Shown here: piece by piece, positions 19,549 through 52,860 of the stretch | How the letters are laid out: each line of letters begins with the position of its first letter | Numbering within the stretch: the first letter of the stretch is position 1 | Origin: a bacterium | GTDB lineage: Bacteria > CLD3 > SB21 | NCBI GenBank assembly: GCA_013359335.1 | Contig: JABWBZ010000001.1 | Span: 1-53,701, forward strand | Reading direction: 5' to 3' | Length of the DNA stretch: 53,701 bases | Notes under the pieces: model-generated | What the model was told of the DNA's origin: nothing | What the model saw: only the letters and a program-made list of their open reading frames with translations | Database searches by the model: none | Position numbers and translations under genes: made by a program

Positions 19549-21009
19549 TCAGGCCATTAGTCCTAATTTTTTCATCCGCATCAGGAGCGTCGTGCGCTTC
19601 ATGCCCAATAGTTTTGCCGCTTCGGCTTTATTGGCGCCGGTCTGATGAAGTACGTAGCGGATGTAGGAACGTTCCAGTTCTTCGATTGTTTTAATATCAT
19701 TAATTTTAAATTCGAAATGGTTCGTCGCATCGGGAGGCTTGCTGAATTGAATATCATGAAGCTCGCGGCGAAATTCTTCCGGGATATCGTTGAGGCTTAA
19801 AGAATCGCTTTCGGCGAAAATCAACATGCGATTGATCAGGTTTTTCAATTCCCGCACATTGCCTTTCCATTCGCGTGAACAAAGAAAATTTAATACTTCT
19901 TGTGAAATCGACCGTACTTTTTTTTCCGAATTCCGGTTATGATCGTTAATAAAATGATTGATCAGAATCGGAATATCGGAGCGGCGGTTGCGCAAAGGCG
20001 GAAGTTGAACGGGAATCACATTCAAACGGTAATACAAATCTTCACGAAACGTTTCCTTCCGGAATTCTTCATAAAGGTCTTTATTGGTCGCCGAAATGAT
20101 CCGGACGTCGACTCTCCGGAAATGCGTTTCGCCGATGCGGCGAATTTCTTTTTCCTGAATAACGCGCAGCAATTTGGCCTGCAGCGCCAATGACGTATTG
20201 GAAATCTCATCGAGAAAAACCGTTCCGCCTTCCGCTTCTTCAAATAATCCCTTTTTGTCGTAGAATGCGCCGGTAAAAGCGCCTTTTTTGTGTCCGAATA
20301 ATTCACTTTCCAAAAGATTTTCGGCCAAAGCGCCGCAGTCGATAGCGGTGAATTTATTGTGCTGGCGTTTGCTGTTAAAATGGATCGCTTTGGCGACCAA
20401 TTCTTTTCCGGTACCGCTTTCGCCTTGAATCAGAACCGTTTCATCGCTAACCGAGGCCGATTTGATCAGGCGGCGCACTTCATTCATCTCCGGACTGACG
20501 CTGATAATATTGTCGAGCGAAAATTCTTTTTCGATTTCCGATTTGAGTACGACGATTTCTTGTTCTAATTTCGCTTTCTCAATGGCAAGGCGTTCGTACT
20601 GATTTTTTCGTTGAGCATTGGCGATATTTTCTTCATATTTTTTGATGGCATCGGCCAGAACGTCAAGGAGCGTTTGGGTTTCCCACGGCTTATGAATATA
20701 GCGGTAAATTTCACCCAGGTTGACGGAATCCACCAGGTCATGAATATCCGCATACGCCGTTAAAACGATGCGGACGGTATAAGGATATGACTCTTTGACG
20801 TGCTTGAGCAGTTCGACGCCGCTCATTGAGGGCATTTTCTGGTCGACAATGACTACTGCAACTTCGTGACGGTTCAGAATATCTAACGCGTCTTCTCCGC
20901 TTGAAACGGTAAAAATCACATACCGGTCTTCGAGAATTTTCCTCAACACACTCAGAATCGGCGGCTCATCATCGACGCATAAAATCGTATGTTTGATTTC
21001 GGTAGTCAT
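19549..21009 (-). CDS. Sigma54-dependent response regulator (REC - AAA+ - Fis-type HTH; NtrC family)
   Basis: The REC domain has DDE and the phospho-acceptor D in VIVDQKMP. A coiled-coil linker follows. The AAA+ domain has Walker A GESGTGKE, the GAFTGA loop (KKGAFTGA) and Walker B FLDEI. The C-terminal HTH is AAKLLGMKRTTL. Confidence 0.9.
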   Translation of the reverse strand: MTTEIKHTILCVDDEPPILSVLRKILEDRYVIFTVSSGEDALDILNRHEVAVVIVDQKMPSMSGVELLKHVKESYPYTVRIVLTAYADIHDLVDSVNLGEIYRYIHKPWETQTLLDVLADAIKKYEENIANAQRKNQYERLAIEKAKLEQEIVVLKSEIEKEFSLDNIISVSPEMNEVRRLIKSASVSDETVLIQGESGTGKELVAKAIHFNSKRQHNKFTAIDCGALAENLLESELFGHKKGAFTGAFYDKKGLFEEAEGGTVFLDEISNTSLALQAKLLRVIQEKEIRRIGETHFRRVDVRIISATNKDLYEEFRKETFREDLYYRLNVIPVQLPPLRNRRSDIPILINHFINDHNRNSEKKVRSISQEVLNFLCSREWKGNVRELKNLINRMLIFAESDSLSLNDIPEEFRRELHDIQFSKPPDATNHFEFKINDIKTIEELERSYIRYVLHQTGANKAEAAKLLGMKRTTLLMRMKKLGLMA

Positions 21010-22429: not shown

Positions 22430-24055
22430 CTATTTTTTCTTGTCGGGAACCAGATCAACGTGAATATTGAGTAATTCGTTTGGCGAGAACGGGCGTTCGA
22501 TTTCTACCGTCCGGAAGCCGTCTTTTTGAATGCTGATTTTATGAAATGTTGCGCGGATGTTGGGCCAGGTCAGAGGGGACGGCGTTTTAGCGAAAATATT
22601 TTTAAAATCGTTGTCAATGTAAACAAAAGCGCCTGCCGGATCCGTATTGACGGCAAACCCCAGTCTCCGGCTTTCGCCCCGATAAGCATCCAGCAGCGCC
22701 GATAATTTATCAAGGTCGAGCGTTACGTCTTTGCTTTCGTTTTCTTTTTCAAGAGTGAAATTATATTCGTAATTCTGATACAGGATAGGAAATTTAATCC
22801 GCAAGGCATTACGCCCTTTTTGAAAATGATTGAGCGTGGCTTTTCCGTCGAAATTGCCCGAACGAGGCCATTCATTGTCATTGACGTAAATTCGAACGTC
22901 ATTCAGGACGTCTGTTTTATCCGACTTGAGAGAAAGATTCACGTTGCCAAAAGCCGGCCCATTAAAATCAAATGGCCATAGGCCTTTCCAAGTAAGCCAT
23001 GTTACTACAGTGATGATGAGCGTTACCGCAGCCGCAATCGCGATTTTCTTTTTTCTTTTTCCTTTATCGTAAAATTTGGCGATGTACTCGCCGGTCGATA
23101 ATTCATCGGGCGGTTCATTGTGTTCGGGAGTATCGGCGACGTGCGGCAGTTTGGCAAAGGGCGAAAAATCAGGATTTTTATTTTTGCTTGTCAGCGTTAA
23201 ATAATATTGCATCAGAAAATGCAGCAACTGGGATTGCGAAATCGACTGTAAATACTGGTTCAGATCTTTAATGACTAAACCGATATGTTGATAGCGAGAG
23301 TCCAGATTTTTGGACATCGCACGGTCGACAATTCTGATCAGGGGTTTGGGGATGCTGACCTGTGAACGATCGAGGGGCTCGTACCGTCCTTGCGCAATCA
23401 GGGTTATCAAAGTCAGGTTACTGTCTGCCGAAAAAGGTTTTTTCCCCGTCAGCATTTCGTACATCATTGTGCCGAGGCTGAAAATGTCGCTTTGCGTGGT
23501 TAGTTTATCGCCGGAGGCTTGTTCAGGAGACATGTACGATGGCGTGCCGATAATGATGCCGGTCGACGTCAGGTTTTTATGCGCTTCTTCGTCTTCTTGC
23601 TTGGCAATTCCAAAGTCCATGAGTTTTACCTGCCCGTCTTTGCTCAGGCGGACATTGCTGGGTTTGATATCGCGGTGAATGATGCCTTTTTCATGCATGT
23701 GTTCGAGGCCGCGCGCGACTTCGCGGGCAATCATCACGGCGGCGTAATGCGGGACAAAGCCGCGCGTCTTGATAATATCGCTTACGTCGATGCCATCGAC
23801 ATATTCCATGACAAGGTAATGGTTTTTTTGCGCATCGACGAAATAGTCGTAAATCGCCGGTAAATTTTCCTGCTTCAGCGCGGCGGATAAAACGGCTTCG
23901 CGGGCAAAACGTTTGACCTTGTCGCGGTTGTCGCCCTTGACCACTTTGATGGCGACCTGGCGGTCTAAGCTGGGGTGACGTCCCATAAACACCGTGGCCA
24001 TACCGCCCGATCCGATTTGTTTGGTGATTTCATAACTCTGGATAAGATTTTCCAT
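22430..24055 (-). CDS. Hanks-type Ser/Thr protein kinase, single-pass membrane protein with an extracytoplasmic PEGA-like C-terminal domain
   Basis: Kinase motifs are GSGGMATV, AIKV, HRDIKPSNV, DFGIA and SPEQ. The TM segment is IAIAAAVTLIITVVTWLTW. A beta-rich C-terminal region of about 180 aa follows. Confidence 0.9.
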   Translation of the reverse strand: MENLIQSYEITKQIGSGGMATVFMGRHPSLDRQVAIKVVKGDNRDKVKRFAREAVLSAALKQENLPAIYDYFVDAQKNHYLVMEYVDGIDVSDIIKTRGFVPHYAAVMIAREVARGLEHMHEKGIIHRDIKPSNVRLSKDGQVKLMDFGIAKQEDEEAHKNLTSTGIIIGTPSYMSPEQASGDKLTTQSDIFSLGTMMYEMLTGKKPFSADSNLTLITLIAQGRYEPLDRSQVSIPKPLIRIVDRAMSKNLDSRYQHIGLVIKDLNQYLQSISQSQLLHFLMQYYLTLTSKNKNPDFSPFAKLPHVADTPEHNEPPDELSTGEYIAKFYDKGKRKKKIAIAAAVTLIITVVTWLTWKGLWPFDFNGPAFGNVNLSLKSDKTDVLNDVRIYVNDNEWPRSGNFDGKATLNHFQKGRNALRIKFPILYQNYEYNFTLEKENESKDVTLDLDKLSALLDAYRGESRRLGFAVNTDPAGAFVYIDNDFKNIFAKTPSPLTWPNIRATFHKISIQKDGFRTVEIERPFSPNELLNIHVDLVPDKKK

Positions 24056-29368: not shown

Positions 29369-31681
29369 TTAACGTCCGGGTGAAAAACTATCGACACGCG
29401 CCGCACTGATTACGCCTTGAACCTTCCGGATCTTTCCAAGTATTAAATTCAGATGGCCGATATTGCGAACCTGAATCACAAAACTGTGAACGCTTTCGTT
29501 GCCGGAAGTTTTGACTTCCGCGCTGACGATATTGGTGTCGGTGGATGAAATTTTTTCCGTAATATCGTTGAGAAAATGTTTACGGTCATAACCGATGATG
29601 CGGATCTGAACGAGAAAATTTTTCGATTCATCCACTTGCCATCGCGCTTGCAAGGCACGATCCGGCTCTTTTTTAACGGCATCGACAATGTTGTGGCAGT
29701 CGTGACGATGGATGTTAATGCCTTTGCCTTTGGTCACGTACCCTAAAATTTCGTCGCCGGGAATGGGATTACAACATTTAGCAAAATGAATCATCATGTT
29801 GTCCATGCCGTTGATCGTGATCGTTTTGCCTTCGCTGGTGCGGGAACGCGTGATAAGCCGTTTGAAAAAGGATTGATCCTGCAACGGTTTTTTTGGTGCA
29901 ATCTTGGACAGAATTTTTTGAGCGACGCTTTGTGCGGAGACATTGCCGCGACCGATCGACGACAACAGCATCTCGCCCGTTTCGAAATGCATTTCAGTAG
30001 CTACAGATTGCAGTTCGGAAGCAAATTCAGTCAGCGTTTTTCTGGGCTGTACGGCTTTGATTTCCTGTTCCAATAAATAGCGTCCGAGAGAGATACTTTG
30101 TTCGAGTTCGATGTTACGGAAATAGCGTTTGATGTAATTTTTCGCCTTGGCCGTTTTGACAATTTCGAGCCAATGAATGCTAGGCGTTTGCTGTTCCGAC
30201 GTGATGACTTCCACGAGATCGCCGCTGGCCAATTCGCTGTGCAGCGGTACCAATTTTCCGTTGACTTTTCCGCCGATGCAATGCAAGCCGACTTCGGAGT
30301 GAACGGCAAAAGCGAAATCGAGCGGCGTTGCGCCTTTTGGAAGCGTCATCAAATCGCCCCGCGGCGTGAAGACAAAAACTTCATCCTGGAACAGGTCGAT
30401 CTTGAGATCTTCAAGAAATTCGTTCGGGTCGTTGATTTCTTTCTGGCGGTCGATGAGTTGGCGGATCCATCCGATCTGGCGATCGATCTGGTTCATCTGC
30501 AATTTGCCTTCTTTGTACAACCAGTGAGCGGCGATACCTTCTTCGGCAATTTGATGCATTTCCCGCGTGCGAATTTGAATTTCTACCATACGTCCGTCCG
30601 GGCCGATGACCGTAGTGTGAATAGATTGATAACCGTTAATTTTCGGAACGGCAATATAATCTTTGAAACGTTCGGTCACAGGCGTGTACGTGCTGTGAAC
30701 GACGCCGAGGGCTTTGTAACAATCGACTTTTTCATTAACCAGAATGCGAATAGCAAGCAGGTCGTAGATTTCATGAAACGGTTTATTCCGTTTCTTCATT
30801 TTGTTATAAATGCTGAAAAAATGTTTCGGGCGGCCGATGATTTCCGCAGGGATATCGTTTTCTTTCATTTTTTCGTCGAGCGGACGGGAAACATTGTGAA
30901 TATACGTTTCACGTTCTTCGCGCTTTTCGGAAATCAGGCGTGACAATTCCCAATACGCATCGGCATCGAGCGACTTCAATACAAGGTCTTCGAGTTCCCA
31001 CCGAATTCTAGCCATACCGAGGCGATGAGCGAGCGGCGCGTACACGTCGCGTGTTTCAATGGCAATTCGTTCCTTTTTCTTGGGGGGCAGGGCGTCGATA
31101 GTCCGCATATTGTGCAGGCGGTCGGCAAATTTGATAATAATCACGCGAATATCTTTGACAAGCGACAGAAGCATTTTGCGGTAATTTTCCGCCTGTTTGA
31201 TTTCGATACTCGTGAATTCAAATCCGCTGATTTTGGTCACGCCGTCCACCAGATGCGCAACGTCTTCGCCGAATTTATTTTTGATGTCGTCGTAAGTGCG
31301 GCCAGTATCCTCGATCACGTCGTGTAAAAACGCGGCTTCGAGCGTTGTGATGTCCATTTTTTGATCGATGAGTATGCTGACGACTTCGATAATGTGATCG
31401 AAATAGGGAAGTCCGGATTTCCGAAATTGGCCGTCGTGCGCTTTGTAGCTGTATTCGTAAGCTTCTCTCAAATGCGACGCATCGGAATTGCGATTGTAGG
31501 CGGAGAAATTTTCGAGAAGGCTGTTAAAACGTTGATCGTAATAATTTTTGTCACGATCAATCGGTTCTGTCGGAAGAATTTCCTGAACTTGTTCGGACGC
31601 CGGCGATAGCGCAGTCGTATGGCTTGCTTTTTTTTCAGCATTGCCCGAACGCAATTTGACTATGTCATTGACAGGACCCAT
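29369..31681 (-). CDS. rel: Bifunctional (p)ppGpp synthetase/hydrolase (RelA/SpoT homologue)
   Basis: 770-aa ORF with the HD domain (HDVIEDT), a RelA_SpoT synthetase region (YQSIHTTV, EIQIRT), a TGS domain (VFTPRGD) and a C-terminal ACT domain. Confidence 0.93.
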   Translation of the reverse strand: MGPVNDIVKLRSGNAEKKASHTTALSPASEQVQEILPTEPIDRDKNYYDQRFNSLLENFSAYNRNSDASHLREAYEYSYKAHDGQFRKSGLPYFDHIIEVVSILIDQKMDITTLEAAFLHDVIEDTGRTYDDIKNKFGEDVAHLVDGVTKISGFEFTSIEIKQAENYRKMLLSLVKDIRVIIIKFADRLHNMRTIDALPPKKKERIAIETRDVYAPLAHRLGMARIRWELEDLVLKSLDADAYWELSRLISEKREERETYIHNVSRPLDEKMKENDIPAEIIGRPKHFFSIYNKMKKRNKPFHEIYDLLAIRILVNEKVDCYKALGVVHSTYTPVTERFKDYIAVPKINGYQSIHTTVIGPDGRMVEIQIRTREMHQIAEEGIAAHWLYKEGKLQMNQIDRQIGWIRQLIDRQKEINDPNEFLEDLKIDLFQDEVFVFTPRGDLMTLPKGATPLDFAFAVHSEVGLHCIGGKVNGKLVPLHSELASGDLVEVITSEQQTPSIHWLEIVKTAKAKNYIKRYFRNIELEQSISLGRYLLEQEIKAVQPRKTLTEFASELQSVATEMHFETGEMLLSSIGRGNVSAQSVAQKILSKIAPKKPLQDQSFFKRLITRSRTSEGKTITINGMDNMMIHFAKCCNPIPGDEILGYVTKGKGINIHRHDCHNIVDAVKKEPDRALQARWQVDESKNFLVQIRIIGYDRKHFLNDITEKISSTDTNIVSAEVKTSGNESVHSFVIQVRNIGHLNLILGKIRKVQGVISAARVDSFSPGR

Positions 31682-31989: not shown

Positions 31990-33639
<1,650 letters not shown>

Positions 33640-41390: not shown

Positions 41391-42656
41391 TCACGGCTTC
41401 AGCGCGCCATTTAATACGACGCTCAATTCATTGAGGGGGCAATTTTTTTGCTCGCCTGATTTCATGTCTTTGATTGCGCATTGATTTTGCGCGACTTCAT
41501 TTTCCCCGATAATAACCACGTATCGTGCATTTTGGCGATTAGCATCGCGCATCTGCGCTTTCAGGCTGCGATCGTTTTGTCCGATCTCGCATGCAAAAGC
41601 TAACTGACGGAGTTGGCGCGCGAGGGGGAGAACGGCCTTCAGCGCTGTTTCTCCTAAAACCACAAAATATACATCGGGCTTCGGCGCTTCGCCAAAAGAA
41701 AGTTTTTCGGCTTCCATCACAATGATAAGGCGTTCGATGCCTGCCGCAAATCCCACTGCCGGCGTAGGTTTGCCGCCAAGGCTTTCGGCGAGAAGATCGT
41801 ATCGCCCGCCGCCGCCCAGCGCATTTTGCGAACCCAAATTTTCACTTTGGATTTCATAAGCGGTTTTCGTGTAATAATCCAGTCCGCGCACCAGTCGTCC
41901 GTCAATTTCGAAAGCAATGTTCATACTTTGCAGCATGGCTTGAACTTTATCAAAGTGCGCCGAGCATTCTTTGCACAGATATGAATTCATCAACGGCGCG
42001 TTGGCGGTTAATTGAAAGTCTTTTTCGTTTTTCGAATCAAGAATTCGCATCGGATTGGTCAGAAGACGTTTCTGGCTTTCGGCAGAGAGATCATTTTTGA
42101 CGTTTTCCAAAAAAGTCACCAGCGCTTCGCGGTAACGCGGACGACAAGTGTGACAGCCCACGCTGTTGATTTTGAAATTCAGATTTTTAATTCCCAATTC
42201 TTCATAGATCGACAACGCGACGGCCATCGTTTCCACGTCGTTTTCGGGAGCCTGGCTGCCGATGCATTCCACGCCAAATTGATGGAATTGCCGCAAGCGG
42301 CCTTTTTGTGGGCGTTCCTGGCGGAACATCGGGCCGATGTAATAAACTTTATTCAACGATTGCAATTCGCCGAGGCTGTTTTCAATAAACGCGCGCATGA
42401 CTGATGCCGTCATCTCCGGCCGCAAGGTCAGGCTTTCGTTGCCTTTGTCCAAGAACGTGTACATTTCTTTGCCAACCACGTCGGTGCTTTCGCCGATGCT
42501 GCGCGAAAATAATTCAGTGTATTCGAACATCGGCGTTCGGATTTCTGCGTAGTTAAACCGGCGCATAACGTCGCGGATTTTATTTTCAACAAAATGCCAT
42601 TTGTAAATTTCAGAAGGAAGAATATCCTTGGTTCCGGTAGGAATTCGGTAATTCAA
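41391..42656 (-). CDS. hisS: Histidine--tRNA ligase
   Basis: 421-aa ORF with GTKDILP, class II motifs (MFRQERPQKGRLRQFHQ, GGGRYD) and a C-terminal anticodon-binding domain. Confidence 0.93.
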   Translation of the reverse strand: MNYRIPTGTKDILPSEIYKWHFVENKIRDVMRRFNYAEIRTPMFEYTELFSRSIGESTDVVGKEMYTFLDKGNESLTLRPEMTASVMRAFIENSLGELQSLNKVYYIGPMFRQERPQKGRLRQFHQFGVECIGSQAPENDVETMAVALSIYEELGIKNLNFKINSVGCHTCRPRYREALVTFLENVKNDLSAESQKRLLTNPMRILDSKNEKDFQLTANAPLMNSYLCKECSAHFDKVQAMLQSMNIAFEIDGRLVRGLDYYTKTAYEIQSENLGSQNALGGGGRYDLLAESLGGKPTPAVGFAAGIERLIIVMEAEKLSFGEAPKPDVYFVVLGETALKAVLPLARQLRQLAFACEIGQNDRSLKAQMRDANRQNARYVVIIGENEVAQNQCAIKDMKSGEQKNCPLNELSVVLNGALKP

Positions 42657-42668
42657 ATGTCAGCTCCT

Positions 42669-44387
42669 TTAATTAAGCGCATTTCGGATGGCGTCGGAAA
42701 ATTTTTGTAAGTTTTCGGTCGGTTCGACGGCGTTTTCACTTTGAGCCAATTGTTCTTTGGCGCTGTTGTCAATTTCTTTGATGCTGAAAAAAACCTGTTC
42801 GTGGGCGGTTTTCTGTTGTTCAATCGCGCGCGTGATGTGTTCGATGGATTCAAAAGTTTGTTTTACCATTTCATAAATGTGATTGAAAGCTTCTTGCGCG
42901 TCGGCGGCGGATTGCTTTCCGTGTTGCACCAGTTTGAGTTCTTTTTCCGTTGCCAAAACGGAAATATGCGTGGCTTTGCGCACATCGGTAATGATTTTTT
43001 TGATTTCTTCAGTTGAATTGGAGATGTTCTGCGCCAGTTGACGGATTTCGGTGGCCACGACGCCGAAACGTTCGCCCAATTCGCCTGCCGCCGCCGTCTC
43101 AATGGCTGCGTTGAACGCCAAAATTTTAGTATGATCGGTGATGTAGTTAATGATCTTCATGACTTCTTCGATTTGCGACATGCGAAGGCTCAAATCCATC
43201 GCTCGCTGCGATCCTAATGTCGCTTCGCTGTGAATCTGTTCGATGCTGTTTAACGTTTTGTCGATGAAATCTTTTCCTTTGGTGACTTGCGCAAATCCGT
43301 TTTGCAAAACTTTATTGACACGCAAAATATCTTCGGAAATTTGATTAACGGAGTGTACCAATTCCTCCAACGTCGTTGTGATTTGTGCGATCGCCGACGC
43401 CTGATTGGAAGAAGCAACGTGCTGATACTTCGACGTGTTCGAAATTTCCTTTGATTCTTGGCCGATGGCCACACTCCATTCGCGTAATTGTCCGGTCAGA
43501 TTTTCCAACTGCCGGTGATAATGCTGAAAATGGCCGCTCAGTGCGGCGATCTCATCGGTCGTAACACGAAAAACTTTCGGTGCGCGTTCATTCGATAAAT
43601 AAGATTGCATCAGCCTGACAGGGCGCAACGTCGAGCGGCTGAACAACCTGACTGTCACCAGAGCGTACAAAGCCGTACCCGCTAAAAGCCAGTATACATC
43701 GGATTGAGCGGCCATACCCGATTCACGCTGCCGCGACATCATCGTGATGAGTAGCGTGCACACGGATATCAAAGGAATGAATACGACAGCCGATAATTTC
43801 ATCCGGAAACTGATCGGAACAACGGACAAAGGCTCGGCGGGCGCTTGAGAAATCTGAGCCGCGAGCGACATCATCAGATTTTCCAAAACAAAAAATTGCA
43901 ATAACGCCAGCGGCCAAACGAAAATGCTCACCGCAACTAATGCGTTCGCCAGATAATCATACCAGAGTATCGAATCAATGATAAAAGGAATCGTAACCGT
44001 CAGGGCTGTAAATAATACCGTACCGTAAATCGTTGCGATCAGGCCGTACGCGCAAAATTTGACCGGATAATTGACAATCTCAGTGGCGATTTCCTGTAAT
44101 ACAGCCGGCGTTGCAACCGACGTCGCGATATCGTCATTCGAAAAGAAAAATAGCGACGTTTTTTTTAGTAAAAGCGTGTGCGTTAAAGCGCCGATAGCCA
44201 GGATAATCCCGACGTCGACCCACAATACCAACTGGCGGTAAAAATTTTCTTCCGGTGTCATGACCATGTTGCTTTGAATGTACACGCTCGCTATCAAAGA
44301 AAAAATTATTCCCATGGCCATGGTATAGAAATAGGGCTTCCATACAATCCAAAATGAGAACGGACGTAACATCGGCTGTTGGCTCAT
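42669..44387 (-). CDS. Methyl-accepting chemotaxis protein with a 6-TM membrane-embedded N-terminal module
   Basis: 572-aa ORF. Six hydrophobic helices with short loops occupy residues 1 to about 260. A HAMP-like segment follows. The conserved signalling tip is AFNAAIETAAAGELGERFGVVATEIRQLA. Confidence 0.9.
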   Translation of the reverse strand: MSQQPMLRPFSFWIVWKPYFYTMAMGIIFSLIASVYIQSNMVMTPEENFYRQLVLWVDVGIILAIGALTHTLLLKKTSLFFFSNDDIATSVATPAVLQEIATEIVNYPVKFCAYGLIATIYGTVLFTALTVTIPFIIDSILWYDYLANALVAVSIFVWPLALLQFFVLENLMMSLAAQISQAPAEPLSVVPISFRMKLSAVVFIPLISVCTLLITMMSRQRESGMAAQSDVYWLLAGTALYALVTVRLFSRSTLRPVRLMQSYLSNERAPKVFRVTTDEIAALSGHFQHYHRQLENLTGQLREWSVAIGQESKEISNTSKYQHVASSNQASAIAQITTTLEELVHSVNQISEDILRVNKVLQNGFAQVTKGKDFIDKTLNSIEQIHSEATLGSQRAMDLSLRMSQIEEVMKIINYITDHTKILAFNAAIETAAAGELGERFGVVATEIRQLAQNISNSTEEIKKIITDVRKATHISVLATEKELKLVQHGKQSAADAQEAFNHIYEMVKQTFESIEHITRAIEQQKTAHEQVFFSIKEIDNSAKEQLAQSENAVEPTENLQKFSDAIRNALN

Positions 44388-44392
44388 AAAGT

Positions 44393-47299
44393 TTATCCGA
44401 TCAGGCTTTCCACCGTGTCAATAAGATTGGTTTGATCGAACGATCCTTTGACAATGTAGGCATTGGCGCCCACGTCGATGCCGCGGCGTTTGTCGTCGGA
44501 CGAATCGCGCGACGTGACGATGATGACCGGTATGTGTTGATAGTTTTTATCGTTTTTAATTTTTGACGTCAGGGTAAATCCATCCATCAAAGGCATTTCC
44601 AGATCGGTCACAATCAGATCGAAATGTTTTTGCCGTATTTTTTCAAAAGCATCGAGACCGTCTTTCGCCGTGTCGACTTCATAACCGTAAGCCTGTAAAA
44701 TGGTTTTTTCAACTTCGCGCGTATTAAGCGAGTCGTCAACGACAAGAATCGATTGCGCCGATTTCTTGGGCATTTTGGGTTTTTCACGAATTGAAAAATC
44801 TTTCGTCGAAGCGATCAGGTCGGGAACGTGCAGGACGAGAACGATTTCATTATTGGTGGCAATGGTGGCGGATGAAATATTCTGAACGCGCATAAAATGA
44901 TCGGGAAGCGATTTGACGATAATGTCGCGTTCGTCGATAATGTCGTCGACGATAAAACCGGCCCGCTCGCCGCTGGCGTGTGCGATAATCACGAAGGCTT
45001 CTTCCTGCTTTATTCCGCCGTCGTTTGGAACGTTCAGGATATCCGTTAAAACCAAAATGGGGATCAACTGGTTGCGCACGCGGATCGCATTTTTCTCAAT
45101 GACTTCGATAATATCGCTGCGTTTGATTTTGATCGTTTCAGTTATCGACGACAAAGGAAAAGCCAATTTATGTTTTCCGGCCTGAACAAAAAGCGCCCGC
45201 AACGACGTCAGGGTCAATGGCAAATGAATGCTGAATTTGGATCCGACGTTTTTTTTCGTTTCGACGGTGATGTAGCCTTTCAGCGACTCGATGCATTGTT
45301 TGACAATATCCATTCCGTAGCCGCGTCCGGAAATATCGGTAATAAAATCGCTGGTGCTGAATCCCGGCATGAAAATGAAATTGATCAAATCGTTTTCCGA
45401 AAACCGGCTGATGTCGTCTTTACCGGAAATTAAATTTTTCTTAACCGCTTTTTCTTTGATTTTTTCAATGTCGATGCCGCGTCCGTCGTCCTGCACTTCG
45501 ATCAGGATCGTATTGCCTTCATTGTAAGCGGCAATCGAAAGCGAGCCTTCGGCGGGTTTGCCTGATCGTGCGCGTTCTTCCGGCGTCTCAATGCCGTGGT
45601 CGATCGCGTTACGGATCAGGTGAATGAGCGGCTCATTCAGTTTTTCCACCATTTTCCGGTCCAGTTCCGTTTCCCTTCCGGTAAGATTGAACTGCAATTT
45701 CTTGCCGAGATTTTTGGCAAGATCGCGCACGGCGCGCGGATACGCGTCGAAAATGGTACTCAGCGGAACCATGCGCATGCCCATGACATTTTGCTGAACT
45801 TCATTGACCAGCGTTTCGAGCGTAGCGGCATTTTCACGGCCGTCCTTCCACAAAGCTTCCATTTGAGCCAACGCAAGGATGCCTTCCTCGATGATCTCAT
45901 GACTCCATGCCGTAAACGAGGAATGTTCCAATGAAAAATTTTCGTTACGGTAGGCAGGGACATAGCCGGTTTCTATTTTCTTGATAAAATGTTTTAAAGT
46001 AATGTACGCCTGCCGCAGATTTTTCAAATGATCGGTATTGCGCATTTGCGAAGTAATCAGTTCGCCGGTCGCGCGGATCAAGGCATCGAGTTTATCAATT
46101 CGGATGCGGATCGTTTGGTCGACGTCCGCACGGCGGTCTTCTTTGGGCGAAGCCGGCAAATCCACTTCCGTTGTCGTAATCTGCGCGTGGCCGAGCAATT
46201 CGCGTGACGTTTTTTGTTCTTTGAGCATCAGGTGCAATTGCTCGCGCGTGAGATATCCGAGGGCGATCAAACGCTCGCCGAGAGGCACGGACGTGTCGGT
46301 AGTTTGATTCGCGTGAATCAATTGTTCGCGCGACAAAAGGCCGGCCTGAACCAAACGTTCTCCCAAGCGATCGGCCACGCCGGAATCGTCCGTTTCGCCC
46401 GACGTCAAAACAACCGGTTTGGTTTCTTTACTGGCAAATATTTTGATTAACGTCTCGGAGTCCATTTTTGCATTACGCGCGACGCCGTCCAGTGCGTCCA
46501 GTACGGCCGTATTGGCAAAATGATCGCTGCCGGTGGAACGAACCTGATCCGACAAGCCCGATAACAGTTGGAGCGCTTCTTCCACGGCTGTTTTGACTAA
46601 CGGCGTGAGAGTGATTTTTTTATTTTGAAACGCCGCGAGAATATTTTCGACCCGCAGCGCGATGGCGCTCAAAGTTTCAAATTTGAGCATGCGCGCCGAA
46701 CCTTTGAGCGTATGAGCAGCGCGCAAAGCGGCTTGCAGCGATTCGGTATGCGCGGAGTTTTTCTTAAGGCTTTCAAATTCATCGCGGATGGATTGCACGT
46801 GTTCTTGGGCTTCGTCCGCGAACTTGGTTACGAACGAAGCTTTGTCGATAGCTGATTTTACCGGTTCTTTCGGAATGTCGGATTTCGCTGGCGTTTTCGC
46901 TGATTCAACGGGCTGATTTTGTGCAAGCGCAATAAGTTTTTGCTGAATGTCGGAAATATCTGCCGCCGCTTCTTGATCGTTCAATACATCGTCGACCAGC
47001 GCGTTGAGTCGGTCGAATGTTTGAAGAAAAATATCGATAACCGCGCCTGAAAATTCCTGTTTCCGTTTGCTCATCGCGTAAGCCGCGTCTTCAAAATCAT
47101 GCGCCAACGTGCTGATCGTCTGGAAGTTCAGCATTTTGGCGGAGCCTTTGATCGTATGAATGGTGCGCATCATGGTGTCCAACGCCTCATGATTCGACGG
47201 AGTTTTTTCAAGACGGAGAACGGAATCGTTGAGCCGCTGGAGATTGTCGCGCGTCTCGAGAACGAATTTTTGAATGAAAGTTGAGCGGTCGAATTTCAT
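44393..47299 (-). CDS. cheA: Hybrid chemosensory histidine kinase CheA (Hpt-Hpt-linker-dimerisation-HATPase-CheW-REC)
   Basis: 968-aa ORF with two Hpt boxes (RTIHTIKGSAKML and RAAHTLKGSARML). The kinase boxes are HLIRNAIDHGIE, DDGRGID and GRGYGMD. A CheW-like domain is followed by a C-terminal REC (ILVVDDS...LIVTDLEMP...IVKG). Confidence 0.93.
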   Translation of the reverse strand: MKFDRSTFIQKFVLETRDNLQRLNDSVLRLEKTPSNHEALDTMMRTIHTIKGSAKMLNFQTISTLAHDFEDAAYAMSKRKQEFSGAVIDIFLQTFDRLNALVDDVLNDQEAAADISDIQQKLIALAQNQPVESAKTPAKSDIPKEPVKSAIDKASFVTKFADEAQEHVQSIRDEFESLKKNSAHTESLQAALRAAHTLKGSARMLKFETLSAIALRVENILAAFQNKKITLTPLVKTAVEEALQLLSGLSDQVRSTGSDHFANTAVLDALDGVARNAKMDSETLIKIFASKETKPVVLTSGETDDSGVADRLGERLVQAGLLSREQLIHANQTTDTSVPLGERLIALGYLTREQLHLMLKEQKTSRELLGHAQITTTEVDLPASPKEDRRADVDQTIRIRIDKLDALIRATGELITSQMRNTDHLKNLRQAYITLKHFIKKIETGYVPAYRNENFSLEHSSFTAWSHEIIEEGILALAQMEALWKDGRENAATLETLVNEVQQNVMGMRMVPLSTIFDAYPRAVRDLAKNLGKKLQFNLTGRETELDRKMVEKLNEPLIHLIRNAIDHGIETPEERARSGKPAEGSLSIAAYNEGNTILIEVQDDGRGIDIEKIKEKAVKKNLISGKDDISRFSENDLINFIFMPGFSTSDFITDISGRGYGMDIVKQCIESLKGYITVETKKNVGSKFSIHLPLTLTSLRALFVQAGKHKLAFPLSSITETIKIKRSDIIEVIEKNAIRVRNQLIPILVLTDILNVPNDGGIKQEEAFVIIAHASGERAGFIVDDIIDERDIIVKSLPDHFMRVQNISSATIATNNEIVLVLHVPDLIASTKDFSIREKPKMPKKSAQSILVVDDSLNTREVEKTILQAYGYEVDTAKDGLDAFEKIRQKHFDLIVTDLEMPLMDGFTLTSKIKNDKNYQHIPVIIVTSRDSSDDKRRGIDVGANAYIVKGSFDQTNLIDTVESLIG
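46214..46369 (-). other. MshEN/T2SSE_N-like tandem motif within CheA (residues 311-362)
   Basis: RLGERLVQAGLLSREQLIHANQTT-DTSV-PLGERLIALGYLTREQLHLMLKEQ. Compare the published MshEN c-di-GMP-binding motif RLGxx(L/V/I)(L/V/I)xxG(L/V/I)(L/V/I/F)xxxxLxxxLxxQ, which is present twice in tandem. Confidence 0.5.
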
Positions 47300-47302
47300 A
47301 CG

Positions 47303-48736
47303 CTATTTCAAATATTGTTTGCAGGCATTGATAATATATTCGGACGAATACGCGAGCGCAATGAATGACAGCGACGCATCCGCTCGGTTTTCCAGAATGC
47401 GTACGGCGTTACGGTATTCGCGGCGGGCGTCGTCTTTGTAACCGGTGTTCCACAACACGGACGCCAAATGAAAATGCGCGAGCGAAAAATCGTTTTTCAA
47501 AAAAATGGTTTTTCTGAAATGTTCTTCCGCGCGAACCGGTTCGTGCCGGTATAGGTGAATCAATCCGAGCAAAAAATAACTTTCGGCCTCCACAGGATCC
47601 ACCGCGATCATTTGCCGGCACACGTCGACAGCGTTGACGAACAATTCTTTGCCGATTAGAATATGCGTTTTTAAAACCAAAAACGGAATCGATTGTCCGT
47701 TGTGCCGCAGATTATCTTCCACATGCGACAAGGCTTCGTCGTAATTGCCGTTTTTGAACATTTTAAATATTTGTTCAAATTGAACCGGCTTGACTTCGGT
47801 CCGTAATTCAGGCGCAGGTGTATTGGATTTACGCGCCGGTTGTTTGACAAGCGTTTCGATGGTTTTTGTCTGAATCGGCTGCGTATCGGTGACCGGCGTC
47901 GATGGCTTCAATTGATATAAAAAAACGCCGTCTTTTTCAACCAATTTCAGGTGGCCGAAATTATGATGAAGCGTTTCGGATGAACTTACGAACAGAAAAC
48001 CATTTTCCGTCAGCGTATGCGCCAGCCGTTTATTGATCTCGCGGATTTTATTTTTTGAAAAATAAATCGAAACATTTCTGAAAAAAATAATATCAAAGTC
48101 ACGGATTAATTCGCCGTAATCTTCCTGGAAAAGGTTGACGTATTCGAACAACACCATTTTGCGGATCCGTTCATCGATGACGCGATACGTTTTGTCGGCG
48201 GCAGGGTTTTTGAAATAGGAATTGAGATAATACACGTCGACGGAACGAAAAGCGTTTTTGTTATAATGGCCTTTCCGGCCGTGGCTGAGCGCGGCGCGAT
48301 CGATATCAGTGGCAATAACCTGCGCTTCGAAATCGCCGTAAATCAATCGGGCTTCATGCAGCGTGATGGCGATTGAATAGGCTTCCTCGCCGGACGAACA
48401 GCCGGCGCTCCAGACTTTGATTTTTTTTTCGCGTTTCTGTTTCAGAATTTCCGGAATCAGATGCATTTTCAAAATCCGGAAGTGCGACGGTTCTCGGAAA
48501 AAATACGTTTCATTATTGGTAATAAGTTCGACCAATTTTCGCAATTCGTCATCCGTACGCGATCCGAGCAGACTGTAGTAGCGGGCGTAATTGTTATCTA
48601 AACCAAGTTGGAGCATGCGCTCACGTACTTTTTGAGTAAACTCGTTGTACGCGTCGTCGGCAAGATAAATTCCGCAAAAGTCGTGAATAGTTTTGCGGAA
48701 AGCATCGTACATGGTTTTATCGAAGTCTGCGATCAT
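47303..48736 (-). CDS. cheR: Chemotaxis protein methyltransferase CheR with C-terminal TPR repeats
   Basis: 477-aa ORF with the CheR N-domain and a SAM fold (VWSAGCSSGEEAYS, DIIFFRNVSIYF). A linker of about 40 aa is followed by about 3 TPR-like repeats. Confidence 0.9.
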   Translation of the reverse strand: MIADFDKTMYDAFRKTIHDFCGIYLADDAYNEFTQKVRERMLQLGLDNNYARYYSLLGSRTDDELRKLVELITNNETYFFREPSHFRILKMHLIPEILKQKREKKIKVWSAGCSSGEEAYSIAITLHEARLIYGDFEAQVIATDIDRAALSHGRKGHYNKNAFRSVDVYYLNSYFKNPAADKTYRVIDERIRKMVLFEYVNLFQEDYGELIRDFDIIFFRNVSIYFSKNKIREINKRLAHTLTENGFLFVSSSETLHHNFGHLKLVEKDGVFLYQLKPSTPVTDTQPIQTKTIETLVKQPARKSNTPAPELRTEVKPVQFEQIFKMFKNGNYDEALSHVEDNLRHNGQSIPFLVLKTHILIGKELFVNAVDVCRQMIAVDPVEAESYFLLGLIHLYRHEPVRAEEHFRKTIFLKNDFSLAHFHLASVLWNTGYKDDARREYRNAVRILENRADASLSFIALAYSSEYIINACKQYLK

Positions 48737-48738
48737 AG

Positions 48739-49776
48739 TTATTCGTTAAAAAAGATTTCATCGACGCCGGCGTGGCGCACAATTTCATCGGCAATACGGT
48801 CCAGCGGCAGCACCCATTCGGCGGCATCGAGATCGATGGCCGCTTTGGGCATGCCAAAAATTAATGAAGTGGCTTCGTTTTGCGCGATCGTTTTGCCGCC
48901 GGCGTTGCGGATTTCTTTCAGCCCGTCGGCGCCATCACGGCCCATACCGGTTAAAATGACGCCGATGGAATTGGCGCCCGCGCATCGCGCCATCGATTCA
49001 AACAAAATATTGCCGGAAGGTTTCTGTCCGTTCGACGGCTCGGTGTCGCTCAGATCAATCGTAAACTCACGTGTGATGGCCAGATGCTTTCCGGAATCGG
49101 CGACATAGACGGCGCCTTTTTCGACGGGTTCATCCGCTTCGGCAATTTTGACTTTCAGCGGCGATACGTCCTGCAGCCATTCCACCAAACCGAACGTAAA
49201 GCCTTCCGAAATGTGCTGGACGACCAGAATCGGCGCGGAAAGATTTTTGGGCAGCCGGCCGAATATCGTCGCCAGCGCGCGCGGACCGCCGGTGGAACAA
49301 ACGATGCCGATGATTTTTTGCAAAACCGGTTTGCGGCCCGGCGTTTTTTTTCTCGGCGTCCGTCCCGAAATGTGCGTGACCACTTTGACGCGGGCGATCA
49401 ATTTAATCTTGCGCGTGAATTCTTCGTATTTTTTTGACGTATAACTTTCTTCGAGTTCCGGCTTTTCCAAAACCTCGAGCGCGCCGACGGAAAGGGATTG
49501 AAAAGCGATGTTGGCGTCGGTGCTGGACGTGATGACGAGAATAGGAGTCGGGCGATAAGCCATGATATGCCGGATTGCATCCAGTCCATTCATCACCGGC
49601 ATATTGATATCGAGCGTGATCACGTCAGGGCGCAACGTCTCCGCCATCTGAATGACTTCGCGGCCGTTGCGCGCTTTGCCGACAACTTCGATGTCCGGAT
49701 CGGAGCACAAAATCGTGTCGATAATATCCAGCGCCGTCGGGGAATCGTCGGCGATTAATACACGAACTTTGCCCAT
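48739..49776 (-). CDS. cheB: Protein-glutamate methylesterase CheB (REC + esterase)
   Basis: 345-aa ORF with a REC domain (VLIADDS...ITLDINMP). The esterase motifs are GIVCSTGGPRAL, VVQHIS and GMGRDGA. Confidence 0.92.
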   Translation of the reverse strand: MGKVRVLIADDSPTALDIIDTILCSDPDIEVVGKARNGREVIQMAETLRPDVITLDINMPVMNGLDAIRHIMAYRPTPILVITSSTDANIAFQSLSVGALEVLEKPELEESYTSKKYEEFTRKIKLIARVKVVTHISGRTPRKKTPGRKPVLQKIIGIVCSTGGPRALATIFGRLPKNLSAPILVVQHISEGFTFGLVEWLQDVSPLKVKIAEADEPVEKGAVYVADSGKHLAITREFTIDLSDTEPSNGQKPSGNILFESMARCAGANSIGVILTGMGRDGADGLKEIRNAGGKTIAQNEATSLIFGMPKAAIDLDAAEWVLPLDRIADEIVRHAGVDEIFFNE

Positions 49777-49798
49777 GGCTGAATCTTTTCAGTGAATA

Positions 49799-51580
<1,782 letters not shown>

Positions 51581-51582
51581 GA

Positions 51583-51849
51583 TTATTCTTCGTTGAATTT
51601 ACTTTCGAATAAGGCGATTAGCGCATTCATCGCTTCCTCTTCGTCGGAACCTTCGATTTTGATTTTGACCGCGCTGCCCATAGCCGCCGCCAGCATCATG
51701 ACGCTCATAATACTTTTGGCGTTGACTTCCGTGCCATCGCAGGAGAAAAAAACGTCGGAGTCAAATTTACTGGCCGTTTTGACCAATAGCGCGGCCGGCC
51801 GTGCATGAATGCCGGCTTTATTGGAAACAATAATTTCTCGTTCGATCAT
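51583..51849 (-). CDS. ptsH: Phosphocarrier protein HPr
   Basis: 88-aa ORF. His15 lies in GIHARPA and Ser46 in NAKSIMSVM, so both phosphorylation sites are conserved. Confidence 0.9.
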   Translation of the reverse strand: MIEREIIVSNKAGIHARPAALLVKTASKFDSDVFFSCDGTEVNAKSIMSVMMLAAAMGSAVKIKIEGSDEEEAMNALIALFESKFNEE

Positions 51850-51867
51850 CCTTGTAAATTTTTTTTC

Positions 51868-52860
51868 TCAATACGACCGGTGCCAAGCCTGATGCGTGAT
51901 TTCCAGCAGGCGGTTTTTGGCCGGCGTATTCTTAAATCCGTTTAAGTTTTTCAATGCCGATTTAAAATGGCTGTCGATTCGTCGTTGCGTTTGCTTCCGG
52001 ATTCCGCTGCTGTCCAAGAAATCGATAAATTCCGTCAACAATTGCCGGTGCCGCGTTTCAGGATGCTCAGGACTGAAAGTATCGAGTAACCCGCGGCCTT
52101 GTTCGCTTCTCGATGCAAGGATCGATAGGTATGTTTTTTTCTTTTCGATCAAATCACTGCCGATGTTTTTCCCGAAAGTATTTTCATCGGAAATAATATC
52201 GAGCAGATCGTCCTGAATCTGAAAAGCCAATCCGAAATGAAGACCGAAATCGCGAAGCGCTTTTTCCTGCTTAGGTGAAACGCCGCCAATGATACCGCCG
52301 ATCCGGGTGGCCGCGCCGAATAAAACGGCGGTCTTTTGACGTATCATATTCATATAATCTTTTTCGCTCACGGTTGTCTGGGTTTCGAATTCTTTATCAA
52401 GCGCCTGACCCTCACATAATTCGATGAACCCGTCCGCAAAAATATTCGAAACATAAGGCAACACATCCTTGGGACACTGGCTCAAGGCTTTGTAAGCCGC
52501 CGCGGCGAGAAAATCGCCCGATAAAATAGCGATATTCGGATTCCATTTTTTGTGAATCGTTTCCCGACCCCGCCGCATATCATCGTTATCCATGATATCG
52601 TCGTGGATCAGCGAAAAATTATGTAGAATCTCCACGGCCGCCGCCGCGTGAAGAGCATGACGATAATTCCGTCCGTTTAAAGTGCTGCACAAAACCAGCA
52701 TCACGGCGCGCAACCTTTTGCCACCGCCTTGAAATAAATACTGAGGCGGTTCATATAGCGTGATGGGCTTTTTTTTTCGAATATATGAAGCGCAAGTCTT
52801 CCGCCAAGAGAATAACCCACCAAGATTTTCTTTTTTGCAAATGTGTTTAAAGAAATCCAA
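51868..52860 (-). CDS. Short-chain polyprenyl (geranylgeranyl/farnesyl) diphosphate synthase; the N-terminus is apparently truncated or chimeric
   Basis: The motifs are LYEPPQYLFQGGGKRLR, FARM LIHDDIMDNDD and SARM FQIQDDLLD. Family-like sequence begins only at about 52768. The 32 codons upstream, from a TTG start at 52860, are an out-of-frame reading of the menH fragment. Confidence 0.7.
   Translation of the reverse strand: MDFFKHICKKENLGGLFSWRKTCASYIRKKKPITLYEPPQYLFQGGGKRLRAVMLVLCSTLNGRNYRHALHAAAAVEILHNFSLIHDDIMDNDDMRRGRETIHKKWNPNIAILSGDFLAAAAYKALSQCPKDVLPYVSNIFADGFIELCEGQALDKEFETQTTVSEKDYMNMIRQKTAVLFGAATRIGGIIGGVSPKQEKALRDFGLHFGLAFQIQDDLLDIISDENTFGKNIGSDLIEKKKTYLSILASRSEQGRGLLDTFSPEHPETRHRQLLTEFIDFLDSSGIRKQTQRRIDSHFKSALKNLNGFKNTPAKNRLLEITHQAWHRSY

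Follow-up and report, generated by a model that had tools for sequence, protein, structure and literature searches.

The hybrid CheA-REC kinase encoded on the minus strand of contig JABWBZ010000001.1 (assembly GCA_013359335.1; the 53,701-nt stretch that was analysed is referred to here as the window) almost certainly holds a genuine MshEN_N (GSPII N-subdomain) module at residues 311–368, inserted between its second Hpt domain and its P3 dimerisation hairpin. This module is proposed to act as a cyclic-dinucleotide sensor with cyclic di-GMP (c-di-GMP) as its default ligand, which would feed the second-messenger state directly into the kinase. Taken as a whole, that is, a genuine module that also provides a c-di-GMP input, the evidence for and against this explanation is evenly balanced. 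CheA proteins with an embedded MshEN_N, one of them shown to bind c-di-GMP, were published in 2016, and the protein described here is another example of them and not a new principle. It differs in its CheA architecture and has an unusual first half-site, and its module was previously unannotated, the database label of the protein being only 'hybrid sensor histidine kinase/response regulator'.

The minus-strand translation of 46214–46369 reads RLGERLVQAGLLSREQLIHANQTTDTSVPLGERLIALGYLTREQLHLMLKEQ and corresponds to CheA residues 311–362; this translation and the Pfam domains agree with the tandem motif pair that an earlier note on this DNA, made from the letters alone, had placed after Hpt2 and ahead of the dimerisation domain. 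The assignment of the pair to MshEN_N is supported, first of all, by sequence profiles. A 101-residue fragment of the kinase matches NCBIfam NF053729 ('cyclic di-GMP-binding domain, MshE-related') with an E-value of 1e-12 and 47.6 bits (curated cutoff 38), and the same fragment aligns with the MshEN_N region of the equivalog for NfrB, a c-di-GMP-activated glycosyltransferase. For comparison, VcMshE scores 86.6 bits with NF053729, two other members of the clade 53.8 and 54.2 bits, and the CheA fragment from Aeromonas veronii, an experimentally proven binder, 45.2 bits, the latter having been scored with X at five unprinted residues. Among PDB sequences, phmmer retrieves with the fragment only the N-domains of MshE, PilF, and PilB (PilF at 5.6e-7; VcMshE, 5HTL, at 1.6e-4), and the PilF match improves to 2.2e-10 when a profile of 17 orthologous inserts is used. 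In hhalign, the orthologue-insert profile aligns over 57 columns with 32 canonical MshEN_N pairs, VcMshE included, with a probability of 98.9% and an E-value of 2.6e-17.

The profile search proposed in the earlier note gave a mixed outcome: while NF053729 recognises the module, Pfam PF05157 has no match in either the whole CheA-REC or the fragment, where the best hit is a weak DUF4388 (E 0.053). This miss is uninformative for the CheA module, because PF05157 also misses the MshEN_N domains that served as positive controls, namely that of the NfrB-like glycosyltransferase P0218 and the N-terminal repeats of the T2SSE ATPase P0181. Stand-alone MshEN_N modules appear in Pfam just as weak DUF4388 or FumaraseC_C matches, and NF053729 finds them. 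PF05157 is thus blind to stand-alone MshEN_N, so that annotation based on Pfam systematically overlooks inserts of this kind.

The predicted structure points in the same direction. AlphaFold2, applied to the alignment of the insert, returned four helices with a core predicted local distance difference test score (pLDDT) of 80–88, and this model shows the paired helical hairpins of a four-helix, two-hairpin fold superposable on VcMshEN_N. When the module was compared with 350,542 PDB chains, the top Foldseek match was 5HTL chain A (VcMshE with c-di-GMP), with a root-mean-square deviation of 1.7 Å over 53 columns, 40% identity, a query TM-score (TMq) of 0.62, and a probability of 1.00; every match at ranks 2–7 is a GSPII domain of PilF or an N-domain of PilB. 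The Foldseek E-values are weak (0.13 or higher) because the domain is short. In the full-length model, the module appears as a bead on a string between low-confidence linkers (291–310 and 364–401; pLDDT below 50), sitting after Hpt2 and ahead of the P3 hairpin, which is the P2 position of a classical CheA.

Conservation in orthologues provides the third line of evidence. The module was found in the same place in every one of 17 full-length orthologues (48–57% identity, all metagenomic), with a mean top-residue frequency of 0.79, compared to 0.28 and 0.30 in the flanking linkers, of which the C-terminal one is rich in indels. Elsewhere in the protein, this frequency is 0.53–0.60 in the Hpt domains, 0.45 in P3, and 0.77 in the HATPase region. 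Residues L312, G313, L327, L340, G341, L359, and Q362 are invariant in the 18 orthologous sequences, and L355 is nearly so. Because the module forms a conserved island between variable flanks and has a defined placement in the model, the reading of the insert as a generic linker was dropped. A chance resemblance to the motif within a generic, unconserved linker would account for the missing PF05157 match, but it is refuted by the E-values of NF053729 and hhalign, by 5HTL as the top structure, and by a segment that is more conserved than Hpt and P3, and its probability is negligible. The identification of an MshEN-like domain in the earlier note is thus borne out by sequence profile, predicted fold, and orthologue conservation alike.

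Beyond this clade, a survey of 102 other CheA-like homologues revealed the module in P0098 only (residues 266–330, before P3), an Anaerolineales CheA with the Aeromonas-type architecture Hpt-P2-MshEN_N-P3-P4-P5. The presence of the module in the window clade, in P0098, and in Aeromonas therefore means that at least three distant CheA lineages carry MshEN_N. A search of the genome contigs with the CheA query returned only unrelated REC or kinase matches.

Another recurring association of Hpt with MshEN_N is exemplified by P0144, P0154, P0157, and P0158, proteins of approximately 1160 residues that hold Hpt domains, multiple MshEN_N-type repeats, and C-terminal thrombospondin type 3 (TSP3) or dockerin repeats, with no kinase domain.

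The deviations from the consensus motif listed in the earlier note—in copy 1, Asn in place of the last Leu and Thr in place of the Gln, a Pro opening copy 2, and a spacer of four residues—are accurate, although they differ in meaning when compared with the family. The reference was drawn from 160 members and holds 659 half-motif units and 294 tandem pairs. Of these members, 149 are the proteins other than CheA within the best 150 matches of an exhaustive representative search, in which 2,281 proteins reached an E-value of 1e-3 or lower, and 11 are from a word-indexed search with the insert profile (837 candidates scored). Pro at motif position 1 occurs in 27% of all units and in 35% of second units, a four-residue spacer in 26 of the 294 pairs (9%; modal length 5), and a residue other than Gly at position 10 in 25% of units. 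On these frequencies, all three can be regarded as ordinary family variation. The Pro and the spacer were dropped as meaningful deviations, both being normal variants in the family and the Pro being tolerated in Thermus thermophilus PilF GSPII-C, which holds it at position 1 of motif II and binds c-di-GMP at ~0.3–0.46 μM (PMC11731258, PMC12002112).

Measured against the same reference, the real departure from the family is the anomaly of motif 1. Its position 21 (N331) is an invariant Asn in the clade, a residue present in 0 of 659 family units, where L/I/V/M account for 94%; its position 24 (T334) is Thr or Ser in the clade and Gln in 74% of family units; and its position 18 is hydrophobic in the clade and polar in the family. 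Residues R311 and G320 of this half-motif are variable among orthologues. Both half-motifs, in addition, hold an Arg at position 5 ('LGERL' twice) that is invariant across the 18 orthologous sequences (R315, 46355–46357; R343, 46271–46273; minus strand), while the wider family has Arg there in 26 of 659 units, with I/L/V/M making up 81%. The paired Arg residues are a symmetric, clade-specific signature, and they might compensate for the missing Arg at position 1.

Binding of c-di-GMP by an MshEN_N embedded in a CheA has experimental precedent. Wang et al. (2016; PMC5013675; Nat Commun 7:12481) reported MshEN in association with 'chemotaxis protein kinase CheA', catalogued CheAs of architecture Hpt-P2-MshEN_N-P3-P4-P5, and determined by isothermal titration calorimetry (ITC) a dissociation constant (KD) of 2.6 μM for c-di-GMP with residues 261–390 of the A. 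veronii CheA EKB11881 (PMC5013675; Suppl. Tables 4 and 6). The statement in the earlier note that no characterised example was known does not hold in view of this measurement. Isolated VcMshEN_N 1–65 also binds c-di-GMP, with a KD of 0.35 μM (ITC; PMC5013675), and therefore MshEN_N alone suffices for binding. In PilF GSPII-B, both Arg residues are absent, yet the domain binds c-di-GMP at 6 nM (PMC11731258, PMC12002112).

In the CheA-REC module, the contacts of the second half-site are all present, namely Leu2 of motif 1 and, in motif 2, Leu2, Gly3, Leu17, Leu21, and Gln24. Of those of the first half-site (Leu17, Leu21, and Gln24 of motif 1, equivalent to VcMshE L25, L29, and Q32), just L327 is kept. 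VcMshE L29 and Q32 line the first guanine pocket, and their alanine mutants bind more weakly, L29A by 28-fold and Q32A by 9-fold. Since the equivalents of both residues are absent, c-di-GMP binding by the module, as predicted from its sequence, would probably be weaker than that of VcMshE. Whether such binding would take place under physiological conditions is close to an even call.

Several points weigh against a c-di-GMP-sensing role. First of all, motif 1 offers no counterpart to VcMshE L29 or Q32 under either alignment, including an alternative hhalign reading in which a one-residue deletion (Leu21) falls in helix α2 and the spacer takes five residues. Second, PilF GSPII-A has a near-perfect motif I and yet fails to bind, also with its consensus fully restored (PMC11731258, PMC12002112), and a motif match cannot for this reason prove binding by itself. 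Third, no published study was found of c-di-GMP altering CheA activity, or behaviour through a CheA; the 2016 paper was the only one found on a CheA with MshEN, and the remaining co-occurrences of CheA and MshEN in the literature are reference-list matches or author names. Fourth, the linker that leads to P3 is variable and indel-rich, so that the module has no rigid helical coupling to the kinase core. Finally, GGDEF, EAL, HD-GYP, and PilZ domains are absent from the 53.7-kb contig and from up to 10 kb around five orthologous clusters, so that these loci lend no support to c-di-GMP synthesis in the lineage.

Some of these facts also fit a degenerate MshEN_N that has lost nucleotide binding and that, tethered where P2 would sit, serves as a spacer or as a protein-protein docking domain, for instance for a response regulator, a PilZ-type adaptor, or a component of the phosphotransferase system (PTS). 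Non-binding relatives of the module exist, as XpsE/GspE and Deinococcus geothermalis PilB_3 join PilF GSPII-A in this respect; the N-domain of Xanthomonas PilB, which binds PilZ, is among its structural matches (7lkm, Foldseek rank 7); motif 1 has lost the two pocket residues; and CheA-REC lacks a P2 domain in a cluster without CheY, CheW, or c-di-GMP genes nearby. However, all other contact positions, including both guanine-reading Gly residues and the entire second half-site, are invariant over ~50% divergence, and the NF053729 score is on par with that of the Aeromonas CheA module, whose binding is proven. A docking or spacer role is the main rival to nucleotide sensing but is considered less likely.

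The remodelled first half-site could also shift the specificity or the binding mode of the module toward a different or asymmetric nucleotide, such as 3'3'-cyclic GMP-AMP (cGAMP) or linear pGpG. Such a change would be consistent with invariant polar residues in one half-site alone (N331 and T/S334), with the invariant Arg at position 5 of both halves, with the family frequencies of both substitutions, and with the weak binding of cGAMP by VcMshEN (KD 0.33 mM). In MshEN, however, the Gly and the residue after it confer guanine specificity through their backbone amides, determinants that are kept in both halves, and a specificity switch has no precedent in the MshEN family, which makes a changed ligand improbable.

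MshEN_N is tethered by two flexible linkers between Hpt2 and P3, at the P2 position, and we infer from the sequence that c-di-GMP may act as a direct input to CheA-REC. In VcMshEN_N, the ligand stabilises the bundle, raising its melting temperature by 10 °C. A ligand-ordered bundle in CheA-REC could change the access of the Hpt domains to the P4 active site or to the C-terminal REC, altering the flux through the phosphorelay; alternatively, it could create a docking surface. That high c-di-GMP lowers the flux is a guess. Regulation of the kinase through binding of the nucleotide is put forward tentatively, at somewhat less than an even chance.

Despite their similarities, the CheA proteins from the window and from A. 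veronii exhibit clear differences. In both, MshEN_N is inserted just before P3, motif 1 is imperfect, and the NF053729 scores are alike (47.6 and 45.2 bits, respectively). However, the Aeromonas protein is of the flagellar type, with one Hpt domain, a P2 domain, and no REC, whereas the window CheA lacks P2 and has a second Hpt domain and a C-terminally fused REC; it keeps the insertion point before P3 of the architecture catalogued in 2016 but departs from it in these features. Unlike its Aeromonas counterpart, it is encoded in a minimal MCP/CheR/CheB cluster (MCP, methyl-accepting chemotaxis protein) without CheW or CheY, in an uncultured lineage related to Bacteroidota, and its changes in motif 1 (Asn for Leu21, Thr/Ser for Gln24, Arg at position 5) are different ones.

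Outside CheA proteins, the MshEN of VcMshE (5HTL) is the best structural match and shares with the window module the two-hairpin, four-helix fold and the tandem 24-residue motifs, of which motif 2 is fully canonical in the kinase. On the other hand, VcMshE has an additional MshEN_C and regulates an ATPase of type II secretion systems or type IV pili (T2SS/T4P), while the window module is an MshEN_N alone inside a histidine kinase, with a motif 1 devoid of the L29 and Q32 equivalents. The best match among PDB sequences is GSPII-C of T. thermophilus PilF, which shares the Pro at position 1 of motif II but stands in tandem with GSPII-A and GSPII-B within a pilus ATPase.

Other routes of c-di-GMP into chemotaxis include YcgR/FlgZ, MapZ-CheR1, PilZ-containing MCPs (Tlp1 and Cbp1), and PlzC. 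Like the proposed system, and unlike Wsp, where c-di-GMP is the output, these proteins make the nucleotide an input to chemotactic behaviour; unlike it, they work through PilZ domains and target motor, methyltransferase, or receptor, and not CheA. The c-di-GMP modules of CckA, ShkA, and SgmT are a catalytic (CA) domain, a pseudo-receiver, and a degenerate GGDEF domain, and none of these proteins is a Che-type kinase. They resemble the system proposed here as (hybrid) histidine kinases that take c-di-GMP as an allosteric input (PMC6969517, PMC3509222).

If c-di-GMP does gate a CheA, the messenger would act atop the chemosensory phosphorelay instead of on the motor, on the receptor, or on the methyltransferase. 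No follow-up on kinase activity was found in the literature after the Aeromonas result of 2016, and the clade described here would be a compact system for such a test, because its kinase has few partners, lacks P2, and carries a REC of its own. The natural remodelling of its first half-site could, in addition, reveal which contacts binding can spare.

The domain order of CheA-REC is Hpt1, Hpt2, MshEN_N, P3, P4, P5, and REC (Table 1). Pfam recognises two Hpt domains, H-kinase_dim (395–507; 23.0 bits, equal to the cutoff), HATPase_c, CheW, and Response_reg, and detects no P2 domain. The CheA-type order P1, P3, P4, P5 is thus present according to both Pfam and the full-length model, and the neighbouring genes encode MCP, CheR, and CheB. 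Regarding Hpt2, its putative phospho-acceptor H196 (46712–46714, minus strand) is replaced by Gln in 5 of the 18 orthologous sequences (P0013–P0017), and the one member of this subclade with an inspected neighbourhood, P0015 (L011, L012), is encoded in a cluster without CheB. Some members of the family may have a pseudo-Hpt as their Hpt2.

Table 1. Positions in the window of the CheA-REC kinase, its domains and linkers, and its neighbouring genes.
Feature	Positions	Strand	Remarks
Hybrid CheA-REC kinase, 968 aa	44393..47299	minus	Open reading frame, Pfam, full-length model; identical protein NCBI NUM79193.1
Hpt1, residues 5-126	46922..47287	minus	Pfam and model; phospho-acceptor H48 invariant in 18 orthologues
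Hpt2, residues 153-289	46433..46843	minus	Pfam and model
Linker, residues 291-310	46370..46429	minus	Variable: top-residue frequency 0.28; pLDDT <50
MshEN_N four-helix module, residues 311-368	46196..46369	minus	Predicted helices 312-318, 324-333, 340-346, 352-368; profile, hhalign, AlphaFold2, Foldseek, conservation
Half-motif 1, RLGERLVQAGLLSREQLIHANQTT, residues 311-334	46298..46369	minus	Remodelled
Spacer DTSV, residues 335-338	46286..46297	minus	D335 invariant
Half-motif 2, PLGERLIALGYLTREQLHLMLKEQ, residues 339-362	46214..46285	minus	Canonical; P339, L340, G341, L359, Q362 invariant
Linker, residues 369-400	46100..46195	minus	Variable, many indels; conserved SRELLGH tail of helix α4 at its start
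P3 dimerisation hairpin, residues 401-509	45773..46099	minus	Pfam and model
P4 kinase (HATPase_c) domain, residues 510-700	45200..45772	minus	Pfam and model
P5 CheW-like domain, residues 702-831	44807..45196	minus	Pfam
C-terminal receiver (REC), residues 850-967	44399..44752	minus	Pfam and model
MCP, multi-span N-terminal membrane region	42669..44387	minus	Directly downstream of CheA; in 6/6 contexts
CheR methyltransferase with C-terminal tetratricopeptide (TPR) repeats	47303..48736	minus	
CheB methylesterase (REC-CheB)	48739..49776	minus	
PTS Enzyme I	49799..51580	minus	Upstream of the che genes
PTS HPr	51583..51849	minus	Tightly spaced, upstream of Enzyme I

The kinase gene belongs to a minus-strand string with short gaps (41391–52860) that encodes a polyprenyl synthase, HPr, Enzyme I (EI), CheB, CheR-TPR, CheA, MCP, and histidyl-tRNA synthetase (HisRS). 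In the six genomic contexts compared (the window and the loci L009, L011, L013, L014, and L015), CheA and MCP always occur together, CheR is present in five, CheB in four, and HisRS lies immediately downstream in at least five. In none of the six does CheW, CheY, a recognisable output gene, or a c-di-GMP gene lie within 10 kb of the cluster, and the whole 53.7-kb contig has none of them either; for a PAS-rich protein encoded nearby in L009, the 1479 available residues contain neither GGDEF nor EAL.

The genes for HPr and EI immediately precede the che cluster on its own strand, with gaps of 2–22 nt, an arrangement found in four of the six contexts (also in L009, L011, and L014); in L011, the stop codon of EI overlaps the start of CheR. 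This organisation suggests an operon-level tie between the PTS phosphorelay and the chemosensory kinase. In E. coli, EI modulates CheA. If the remodelled half-site has changed the ligand, a Che-type kinase co-transcribed with HPr and EI could conceivably sense another messenger than c-di-GMP directly, joining carbon status and nucleotide signalling, although this is a long shot.

As for the origin of the contig, its GroEL (31990–33639, minus strand) belongs to a tight group whose members are 86–92% identical to it, and its closest named relatives, at 75–77% identity, are from metagenome-assembled genomes of Bacteroidota, Ignavibacteria, and Kapabacteria. Judged by this GroEL, the contig is from a lineage of the Fibrobacteres–Chlorobi–Bacteroidetes (FCB) group near these three taxa. 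Proteins with a type IX secretion system (T9SS) tail adjoin the locus of one orthologue. Other signalling genes of the window, all on the minus strand, encode a sigma-54-dependent response regulator (19549–21009), a Ser/Thr kinase with a PEGA domain (22430–24055), and a RelA/SpoT (p)ppGpp enzyme (29369–31681).

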